From NCBI GenBank assembly GCA_965198225.1, contig CBDAOY010000009.1, positions 224,001 through 288,000 of the forward strand: a stretch of DNA of 64,000 nt, written 5' to 3'. The stretch's first letter is position 1, and every line of letters starts with the position of its first letter. The translations under genes were made by a program, and so were the position numbers. Below, piece by piece: positions 3,863 through 5,886 of this stretch. Below the pieces are notes generated by a model. It was not told where the DNA came from. It saw only the letters and a program-made list of their open reading frames with translations, and did no database searches. This DNA is from Terriglobia bacterium. GTDB taxonomy: Bacteria > Acidobacteriota > Terriglobia > 20CM-2-55-15.

Positions 3863-4273
3863 ATGTACTGTCCAAATCCCGAGTGCCCCGACACCCAGGC
3901 CACCGGGTTTCGAGCGGAATACAGAAGCGACCTGACCCTGTGTCCCTTCTGCGGCGACGGCCTGGTCTCCACGCTGGAGGCCGTAGACCCACCCCAAGGC
4001 AATCGATCGGATGTGGCGGACGACGAGGAGTTTGAAGTCGTTTTTGAAACGGGGAACGCCACGGAAGTCGCCATCATAAAGTCTCTGCTGGAAGCAGAGG
4101 CAATACCCTATCTGACACGCGGCGAAGACCAGTTCGACGCGTTCCGCGGCCTGTTCCGCAGCACGATGTTCAACCCGAGCGGCCGACCGGTCGTTTTCTC
4201 GGTCCCCGCGAGAATGGCACCAGAAGCCAGACAGCTCCTCGAGGAAACAGAGCTGCCCGACGAAGACGCCTGA
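3863..4273 (+). CDS. Zn-ribbon + DUF2007 domain protein
   Basis: MYCPNPECPD...CPFCG followed by IIKSLLEAEAIPY. Confidence 0.75.
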   Translation: MYCPNPECPDTQATGFRAEYRSDLTLCPFCGDGLVSTLEAVDPPQGNRSDVADDEEFEVVFETGNATEVAIIKSLLEAEAIPYLTRGEDQFDAFRGLFRSTMFNPSGRPVVFSVPARMAPEARQLLEETELPDEDA

Positions 4274-4378
4274 TGGTCGAGGCGGATCGGGGGAGCCTCG
4301 TGATAGTCTTGCTGGGCCGGTTGCGGGAAGCCCTTCCGGGCCCTCGTGCCGGCTGGCACCCCAACCAGGAACGATGAT

Positions 4379-5176
4379 TTGGTCGACGATCTCGAACATC
4401 ACGAAGAAAGCTACTCGGCAAAGCAGTCCGGCATCGCCTTGACAGTGGAACAGGCGGCGTTCGGTTCCGAGTCCGGACGTAACGGCTACACCTCTCTCGA
4501 ACAGGCCCAGGCCCTTCTCGACTGTGTCAGTCTGGACGCCGAGGCCTGTCTACTGGACCTCGGAGCCGGGCGGGGATGGCCCGGCACACACATCGCCGAA
4601 ACCAGCGGATGCCGGCTCGTTTCGACGGACATACCGATGGATGCGCTGCGGGCAGCCAAGCGAAAGAGTCTCTCGAGCGACACCCACGTGTGTCGTGAAG
4701 TCGTCGCGGCTGAAGCCCTGGCCCTGCCGTTTTGTGCGGGTTCTTTCGATGCTATCGTACACGCGGATGTATTCTGTTGAATCTCAGACAAGCTCTCCGG
4801 GTGGAGAGAAAGCCATCGGGTCCTGAAACAGGATGGCCGAATAGCGGGCTATACCATTCACACACCCGTTGGACTGAGCCCGGCCGAGGAGCGAAGGGCT
4901 TCGGAGCTGGGGCCGACGCAGGTCAACGGACCAGGTTCGCCCGAAGAACTCGCCCGCACAGCGGGCTTCTCCATTTTGGCTCTGGATGATGTCACGGATA
5001 CTTTTCGGGTCTCGTGTGAATCTCTGCTGCGGGCAAGGGAAGAGCTCGAGGAACAACTTCGGGACGAAGAAGGCGACGCGCCCTACGAAGAGGGGCTGGC
5101 GAACCGGAGAGGGCTGCTGCTCGGGATTTCCGAGGGCCTCCTTTGTCGCTCTTTGATCGTGGCGGTCAAAGTCTGA
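4379..5176 (+). CDS. Class I SAM-dependent methyltransferase with in-frame TGA (probable selenocysteine, CU motif)
   Basis: Motif I LLDLGAGRG; LPFCAGSFDAIVHADVFC-TGA(4778-4780)-ISDKLSGWRESHRVLKQDGR continues in frame to TGA 5176; SECIS-like hairpin follows. Confidence 0.8.
4781..4826 (+). promoter_or_regulatory. Putative bacterial SECIS element
   Basis: Stem CTCTCC(4793-98)/GGAGAG(4803-08) with GGGT loop 18 nt after UGA; possible lower stem TCAGAC/GTCCTGA. Confidence 0.7.
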
Positions 5177-5232: not shown

Positions 5233-5886
5233 ATGATGAACAACGTTGCCAACACCTGGATCAAGCGCGCCGTCCTTATTTTCGCGCTTGTCGGGTTCAC
5301 CCTGTCGTCGGCCGGTGCGCAGACATCAGAGGAAGCTGCCCGGTTGTTTGACGCCCTCGGGCTGGAGCCGGGAATGACCGTGGGTGAGGTCGGCGCCGGC
5401 AGGGGAGAGATGACCATCGAAATGGCGAACCGGCTCGGTCCGGAAGGTCACGTCTACACGAACGAACTCGATGCAGCGCGGTTGGAAGACATTCGCAATA
5501 CCCTCAGACGGGACCGGATCGGGAACGTTACAGTTATCGAATCCGGTGAGAACTCGACGAACCTCCCTGAAGGTTGCTGCGATGCCATCTTCATGCGCGA
5601 TGTCTACCACCACCTCACAAGTCCCGCCGAGATCAACCAAAGCATCGTTGCCGCCCTCAAGCCCGGCGGGCGGTTTGCCGTCATTGACTTCGAGCCTCGG
5701 GCCGGCATGAGGCCTGTCGAGGGGGTGCCGGCGAATCGCGGGGGGCACGGAGTCCGTCCGGACCTGATCGTCGAAGAGCTAAGAGCGGCCGGCATGACGG
5801 TGACCCAGCCGAGCGCGGATTGGGTTGCTCGCGCCAGGGGCAACACCCGGATGTTTGTTGTGGTGTTCACGAAGCCGGTGGGATAG
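5233..5886 (+). CDS. Class I SAM-dependent methyltransferase with N-terminal signal peptide
   Basis: [18 protein letters not shown] and ALKPGGR; hydrophobic N-terminus ending AGA-Q; AAGGAG RBS. Confidence 0.85.

Follow-up and report, generated by a model that had tools for sequence, protein, structure and literature searches.

A widespread bacterial methyltransferase family with a predicted selenocysteine at the position of the catalytic histidine

ArsM methyltransferases are recognized by a Cys in an S-N-C-V-I-N-L segment and a Cys or selenocysteine (Sec) in a later W-x-G-C/U segment. Enzymes of the Sec-ArsM type (NCBIfam NF008823, with NF041536, NF041537, and NF047649 as fusion forms) are class I SAM methyltransferases whose UGA specifies a Sec close to the SAM site, with a SECIS element just downstream. 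Table 1 of a May 2026 review, which lists 119 prokaryotic selenoprotein families, gives Sec-ArsM, with the Sec motif UxxG, as experimentally verified (PMC13188914). The methyltransferases in that table are ArsM, MGMT, MduS, methyltransferase/UXPK-star, and two ArsM fusions; MduS (NF045649), a methyltransferase-domain selenoprotein, is entered with a CxxU motif and two Sec (PMC13188914). The same table contains selenoproteins with adjacent Cys and Sec residues, namely SaoL, HgcA, SaoC, MbdU, and KCU-star (PMC13188914). Several of them have been assigned by their describers to organometallic or metal-binding chemistry. None of the 119 families in the table is a Cys-Sec methyltransferase.

Here we describe a gene within a 64,000-nucleotide stretch of DNA from a Terriglobia bacterium (the window, in what follows) that is predicted to encode such a protein. 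Like SaoL, HgcA, SaoC, MbdU, and KCU-star, it has adjacent Cys and Sec, but those five have unrelated folds and none is a SAM methyltransferase. Its fold, with N-terminal helices and a C-terminal helical cap, is shared with RebM, AtmM, MitM, TleD, and the phosphoethanolamine N-methyltransferases (PMTs), to which it is 15–22% identical, with HMM E-values of 4.6e-25 to 1e-20. In both the family and these solved relatives, the residue at position -4 relative to the catalytic site is conserved as acidic; the catalytic His (or His-His) of the relatives is replaced in the family by Cys-Sec, Sec-Sec, or Cys-Cys. A preliminary description of this DNA had put the gene forward as a hidden selenoprotein candidate, and the comparative evidence supports that proposal strongly. 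Judged from sequence comparison, it is very probable that the locus encodes one full-length class I methyltransferase in which the UGA at 4778–4780 specifies Sec at the catalytic position.

The gene lies on the forward strand at 4379–5176 (265 codons plus the stop) and is open except for the TGA at 4778–4780. Two ORFs, 4346–4780 and 4976–5176, which begin 630 bases apart, share one frame, and this TGA is the sole stop between them, as the preliminary description had also seen. It immediately follows a TGT (Cys) codon at 4775–4777. When the TGA is read through, a single open frame results that ends at TGA 5174–5176. The likely start is TTG at 4379, with AGGA 8 nt before it, and GTG at 4346 is an alternative. 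The TTG start gives a protein of 265 residues containing Cys133 and Sec134, reproducing the earlier readthrough product of about 265 residues with U near residue 134. The Pfam family Methyltransf_11 matches residues 70–167 of the GTG-start protein with 52.3 bits, above its cut-off of 21.2, so the domain spans the TGA. SAM-binding motif I (L-D-x-G-A-G-x-G-W-P, residues 59–68, positions 4553–4582), where Pfam methyltransferase domains also match, is invariant in a 57-row alignment of the family (A2), as is Asp130 (4766–4768), four residues before Sec. Orthologues in this alignment extend along the whole length of the window protein, with a mean column identity of 45%. With the Pfam match above its cut-off, motif I invariant, and a structural model and fold matches (described below) in agreement, the protein belongs to the class I SAM-dependent methyltransferases.

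One simple explanation of the interrupted frame is a sequencing or assembly error in a TGC or TGT Cys codon. The stretch is present in sequencing runs from six studies. A DNA-assembly contig from another study (X5) spans 4462–5085 with 0 differences, TGA included, and a contig from an RNA library (X16) spans 4762–4928, likewise with 0 differences, crossing both the TGA and the hairpin described below. TGA is one base from TGC and TGT, but nothing else favors an error, and the TGA stands unchanged in these two contigs and in 50 other assemblies, making this explanation extremely improbable. X16 is also a weak hint of transcription; contigs of this kind do not prove it, because DNA may occur in RNA libraries, and the uncovered parts of X14 and X16 are uninformative either way. 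In run X2, a second contig (record 5) matches only 38 bases of the window, 4772–4809, and differs on both flanks. It is probably another organism's orthologue with a conserved recoding cassette.

We surveyed 60 related genomes, including the window's own, at E <= 1e-10, and seven matched. The sole close full-length orthologue among them (G020, another genus of the same family) is 60% identical and has TGA at the same column. A genome of the same genus, G001, contains a remnant (locus L027, contig C121, around 1300–1700) in which about 55 N-terminal and about 60 C-terminal residues are joined, without the entire Rossmann core and the Cys-Sec site. The other two genomes of the genus had no match at E <= 1e-10. 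Given the single close orthologue, the remnant, and these absences, the gene is accessory in the window's lineage.

When species-representative genomes were scanned, there were 206 matches to the pattern; 97 of them were confirmed as relatives, and 80 were kept (L029–L108). We set aside 26 loci (L082–L095 and L097–L108) that match over the Rossmann core only, at 26–51% identity; these mostly carry an '...HH...' motif, and L083 is broken. The window and the remaining 54 loci made up the census of the vicinal pair, in which 53 genes were readable at the pair and two were not (L078 is frame-broken and L079 lies at a contig end). The pair is Cys-Sec in 40 genes, the window's included, Sec-Sec (TGA-TGA) in 10, Sec-Cys in one (L072, TGA-TGC), and Cys-Cys in two (L063 and L064). 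The Sec-Sec genes (L039, L041, L048, L051, L053, L059, L068, L073, L076, and L096) all come from Chloroflexota or from records without a phylum name. Of the 53 genes, 42 thus have Cys and 11 have TGA at the first position of the pair (Cys133 in the window). Altogether, 51 of the 53 have TGA at the pair, and the carriers are metagenome-assembled genomes (MAGs) labelled Acidobacteriota, Gemmatimonadota, Chloroflexota, and Actinomycetota. Past the pair, the frame stays open for about 125–135 codons in every readable gene except L043, where it closes after about 40. The family therefore shows the conserved in-frame UGA, with open frame on both sides, that is expected of a selenoprotein.

These counts bear on the possibility that the TGA is a genuine stop, leaving a pseudogene or two independent ORFs. 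Gene callers do split the gene, and many database entries end on the Cys or are C-terminal fragments. TGA also serves as an ordinary stop in the window's genome, both for this gene (5174–5176) and for the gene upstream (4271–4273), and the same-genus genome keeps only the L027 remnant, its Rossmann core deleted. However, decay would not be expected to leave 51 of 53 readable genes, spread over four phyla, with a stop at one shared column and with open, conserved frame flanking the TGA on both sides in all but L043. Moreover, neither half by itself is a complete Rossmann fold, and the RNA-level constraint beside the TGA is confined to the TGA forms. A genuine stop is thus very unlikely.

Protein collections contain the other side of this pattern: full-length homologues are Cys-Cys, and several entries terminate exactly on the Cys. 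Searching 1.84 billion representatives with a profile yielded 243 proteins at E <= 1e-30, and the best 150 of these gave 161 aligned rows. Among these rows, 96 span the site with Cys-Cys, 30 are N-terminal fragments that finish exactly on the Cys, five finish just before the pair, 12 are fragments that begin past it, two are Cys-Trp, seven have other residues, and nine are alignments that stop before the pair. The best-150 list is biased toward full-length, and hence Cys, forms because such forms score higher. Cys homologues are therefore represented by L063 and L064, by proteins P0003–P0012, and by the 96 rows from the best 150 representatives, so that TGA-bearing and Cys-bearing homologues share the column, the pattern that the preliminary description had named as a check. 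In A2, the pair is C/U-C/U in all 57 rows. The entries of P0002 and its cluster are without exactly the segment around the pair. Such gaps, and the Cys-Trp rows, may be gene-caller artefacts in which a stop was skipped or TGA was read as Trp.

A tree of 55 rows was built by maximum likelihood. Its alignment does not include L043 and L096, and L077 and L080 were omitted because parts of their frames are broken. The window groups with a Terriglobia MAG (support 100/99). Cys-Cys forms are nested among Sec forms, with at least three changes, and the Sec-Sec state likewise involves at least three changes on the tree.

Directly 3′ of the UGA is a candidate SECIS (4793–4808) that starts 12 nt after it. 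The 6-bp stem is formed by a 5′ arm, CUCUCC (4793–4798), and a 3′ arm, GGAGAG (4803–4808), and encloses a GGGU loop (4799–4802) that begins 18 nt after the UGA; stem and loop are found just as first described. The folding energy of this hairpin is ordinary (z = -0.60, with 52 of 200 shuffles folding at least as well), and the evidence that it exceeds chance is comparative, not energetic. Across the family, a 5-bp core sits 11–12 nt after the TGA. Its five pairs are kept in 51, 50, 50, 51, and 51 of 51 Sec-form rows, including eight A-to-G changes that retain a U-G pair. These 51 rows contain no two-sided covariation, because the stem hardly varies. In the 50 Sec-form rows counted for codon usage (all but L029), the third positions of the five codons CTC TCC GTG yTG AGA have an entropy of 0.00 bits, compared to 1.3–1.9 bits elsewhere in the gene; these invariant-wobble codons span 12–26 nt past the second codon of the pair. 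The Arg codon in the hairpin is the rare AGA or AGG, in genomes that are GC-rich. The Cys-Cys gene L063 retains all five amino acids but uses different codons that destroy the stem, and in L064 the stem is likewise lost. Thus, the hairpin, whose conservation the preliminary description had suggested checking, is kept in Sec forms, whereas both Cys-Cys genes have changes in the codons that form the stem.

The usual loop in the family is C-G-U-G-Y-U. In the window, changes of Val to Gly and Leu to Trp add the sixth pair and leave the GGGU loop. The register of the hairpin is unchanged in the Sec-Sec and Sec-Cys genes, so that the first UGA lies three bases farther from the hairpin than the second. 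We also tried an extended lower stem (columns 13–18 with 35–40 of alignment A3), which had been mentioned as possible; its counts were no better than those of shuffled or slid controls, and we rejected it. Rfam had no family matching the hairpin, and a search of 4600–5000 gave only a CRISPR-repeat match, below threshold and on the opposite strand. As a stem-loop 3′ of the UGA with G in its apical loop, constrained as RNA, the element has the properties of a bacterial SECIS.

The window's genome (6.4 Mb, nine contigs, 97% complete) encodes the machinery that such an element would serve. The preliminary description had proposed a genome-wide search for selA, selB, selD, and tRNA-Sec, and all four were found above their family cut-offs: tRNA-Sec at 72.9 bits (called SeC(tca) by ARAGORN), selB at 387 bits, selA at 537 bits, and selD at 372 bits. 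The selD gene has its own in-frame TGA (L018, G000:C9:419380-420303, minus strand), in a G-U-A-G-K context with a hairpin about 12 nt downstream; a narrower script found no SECIS there and a broader one located the site. In further genomes with Sec forms, selA was above cut-off in seven of eight, the eighth having only a 58-bit C-terminal piece. Neither selA nor selD was above cut-off in the two Cys-Cys genomes, which may be incomplete. We propose that the UGA at 4778–4780 would be decoded by the genome's SelA/SelB/SelD/tRNA-Sec system, with the small hairpin that starts 11–12 nt past the UGA as the guiding SECIS.

Alternatively, the UGA could be read as Trp, Cys, or Gly, by a near-cognate tRNA or through reassignment. 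The two library representatives with Cys-Trp at the pair would fit this reading, although gene callers translating TGA as Trp may account for them. Several observations argue against insertion of a standard amino acid: TGA serves as a stop in the window's genome; at SECIS distance lies a dedicated hairpin whose loop contains G-U; the homologous residue in genes read from DNA is Cys and never Trp; and selA accompanies the TGA forms, with none found in either of the two Cys-form genomes. We regard readthrough with Trp, Cys, or Gly as highly improbable, and Sec remains the preferred reading.

To place Sec134 in the protein, we used an AlphaFold2 model made from the 57-row alignment, with Cys substituted for Sec (pLDDT 90.3, pTM 0.88). 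The best structural matches, with TMq of 0.7–0.8, were PMTs, AtmM, RebM, TleD, and MitM, together with a putative sarcosine/dimethylglycine methyltransferase. A profile search of the PDB gave E-values of 4.6e-25 for MitM, 1e-22 for RebM, and 2e-21 for AtPMT2. In the HMM alignments, the Cys-Sec pair stands opposite the 'HH' of RebM and AtmM, and Sec stands opposite the single His of MitM and AtPMT2. Asp130 aligns with the Asp or Glu of the D/E-x-x-x-H motif in AtPMT2, RebM, AtmM, and MitM; it also aligns with the ArsM-type Cys position in an ArsM-like protein encoded next to one family member (L046). The protein lacks the catalytic His after beta4 that marks small-molecule O/N-methyltransferases of the RebM, PMT, and MitM type; it has Sec there and Cys before it.

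In PfPMT, Tyr19 and His132 form a catalytic dyad located between the SAM and substrate sites, according to excerpts of PMC6705855. The titles of PDB entries for PfPMT mutants, H132A and D128A, reveal the same i/i+4 spacing. The equivalence of Sec134 to His132 was drawn through the plant PMT alignment and this D(i)/H(i+4) spacing, not from a direct alignment. Tyr12, in the N-terminal helix, is nearly invariant in A2 and may correspond to the Tyr of the dyad. Since Sec aligns with the catalytic His, it is most likely at the center of methyl transfer; the earlier placement of Sec at a post-beta4 active-site position thus gains support from alignments to solved methyltransferases. In the alignments and the model, Cys133 and Sec134 would occupy the post-beta4 site of the relatives' catalytic His, beside the SAM methyl group.

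The described selenoprotein methyltransferases differ from this family. It had been anticipated that curated HMM libraries might already hold Sec-containing methyltransferases; NCBIfam does have such models, but the window protein and all 18 family members in alignment A1 score below the cut-off of every NCBIfam model. In the Sec-ArsM type, Sec lies in a W-x-G-U-I-A-G segment about 60 residues later than the post-beta4 Sec of the window family. The window protein scores 19.6 bits with NF008823 (cut-off 263), has Asp130 at the first ArsM motif position, and belongs to a family with no equivalent of the second ArsM segment in A2. Its identity to the ArsM-like protein at L046 is 33% over 113 residues only. 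The MduS model (cut-off 380 bits) does not match the window protein at E <= 1e-5 and matches four of 18 family members weakly (best E 4e-7); as compared through this HMM and the review table, MduS, with its two Sec, differs from the single Sec and Cys-Sec motif of the window protein. The best NCBIfam match is the DVU_1556 family (NF045667); it runs over profile positions 10–192 of 213, taking in the Rossmann core and some of the C-terminal cap. The score is 52.6 bits, below the cut-off of 155, and 17 of the 18 members match below cut-off.

A full-text literature search found no description of a Cys-Sec methyltransferase family, and the word 'methyltransferase' is absent from the main texts, supplements aside, of deep-Sep and BSepDB. 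The literature search turned up no paper on consecutive UGAs combined with a SECIS, and, among titles and abstract openings on adjacent or tandem Sec, none concerned bacterial tandem Sec. This widespread family of predicted bacterial selenoproteins is missing from the selenoprotein inventories examined, namely the review table and those main texts.

We next consider what the pair may do. In the window, the neighbors are unrelated small genes (beta-lactamase-fold, DUF1801, THAP4-like haem-binding, DUF2007, SEC-C, GNAT, and CYTH proteins), along with a second, apparently secreted methyltransferase. The latter, at 5233–5886 on the forward strand after the selenoprotein gene, is an unrelated class I methyltransferase with a signal-peptide-like N terminus. 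A Terriglobia relative also has a methyltransferase just downstream (L029:3958-4557). Because our first clustering of ORFs was confounded by antisense ORFs of high-GC DNA, neighbors were recounted with a GC3 filter. Among 135 neighboring proteins from 51 loci, the top Pfam families were methyltransferases (nine), Glyoxalase_6 (seven), and Cupin_2 (seven); no partner was common to the loci, and no ars or mer operon recurred.

An ArsM-like methyltransferase with its own in-frame TGA lies directly upstream on the same strand in 12 of 55 sources (L046:2215-3000, L047, L049, L055, L056, L060, L062, L071, L075, L078, L080, and L081). Two of these are Chloroflexota, and the rest are Actinomycetota-labelled save one without a phylum label. 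The Sec motif of this neighbor is W-S/T-G-U-I-A-G; it scores 216.9 bits on NF008823, under the cut-off of 263, and has Gly at the Cys of the ArsM S-N-C motif. Several of these loci also hold an MFS transporter (eight), a metallo-beta-lactamase/rhodanese fusion (seven), or a Glyoxalase_6 protein. Elsewhere in the window's genome, a separate ArsM match above cut-off (L109, G000:C8:946569-947384, 335 bits) has one TAA within its matched range.

The preliminary description had suggested metal, metalloid, or thiol methylation. That suggestion goes beyond the evidence, as the neighborhoods offer only weak hints. A selenolate is a poor base and an excellent soft ligand and nucleophile. As the pair is always Cys or Sec, and a selenolate is soft rather than basic, a thiophilic acceptor is favored. 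We suggest that the Cys-Sec pair could bind such a soft acceptor, for example a trivalent metalloid or a sulfur or selenium species, and present it for methyl transfer, and that the pair could also accept two electrons by closing a selenenylsulfide. That a thiophilic acceptor is held by the pair next to SAM is a tentative proposal, possible but short of probable.

Alternatively, Sec may be real and the Cys-Sec pair may be a redox switch, in which a reversible selenenylsulfide gates an ordinary O- or N-methyltransferase. Vicinal Cys-Sec pairs are known redox centers, as in thioredoxin reductase, and, among solved structures, the nearest relatives are small-molecule methyltransferases acting on O or N. 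Against a switch, the pair replaces the catalytic His itself, with no alternative base evident, and it is invariant as C/U-C/U in the 57 rows of A2; the repeated switching among Cys-Sec, Sec-Sec, and Cys-Cys also fits a chemically essential soft pair. On balance, we consider a redox switch unlikely.

The soft-acceptor proposal can be extended to a broader reading that joins three elements: replacement of the catalytic His by a vicinal chalcogen pair that would have switched repeatedly between Cys-Cys, Cys-Sec, Sec-Cys, and Sec-Sec, tandem-UGA decoding to Sec-Sec, and a thiophilic or Se-methyl role. In the ten Chloroflexota-type genomes, two consecutive UGAs would be decoded as Sec-Sec off one 5-bp SECIS hairpin, which would need SelB to be reloaded on the same hairpin after the ribosome had moved one codon. 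The pair could then act as both ligand and two-electron donor, or could carry the methyl group as a Se-methyl intermediate. That all three elements hold jointly is doubtful.

In most carriers, annotation splits or truncates the gene, and an entire selenoenzyme family has thus been hidden. The family would put selenium at the catalytic center of a SAM methyltransferase, at a position unlike that of the known Sec-ArsM type. Sec at this center would point to methyl-transfer chemistry that is done less well by His or Cys, and the Cys-Cys, Cys-Sec, and Sec-Sec versions form a natural series for gauging the contribution of selenium. The Sec-Sec versions bear on how one bacterial SECIS may serve two adjacent UGA codons, and the very short, nearly invariant hairpin would be a compact SECIS of use for recoding assays.
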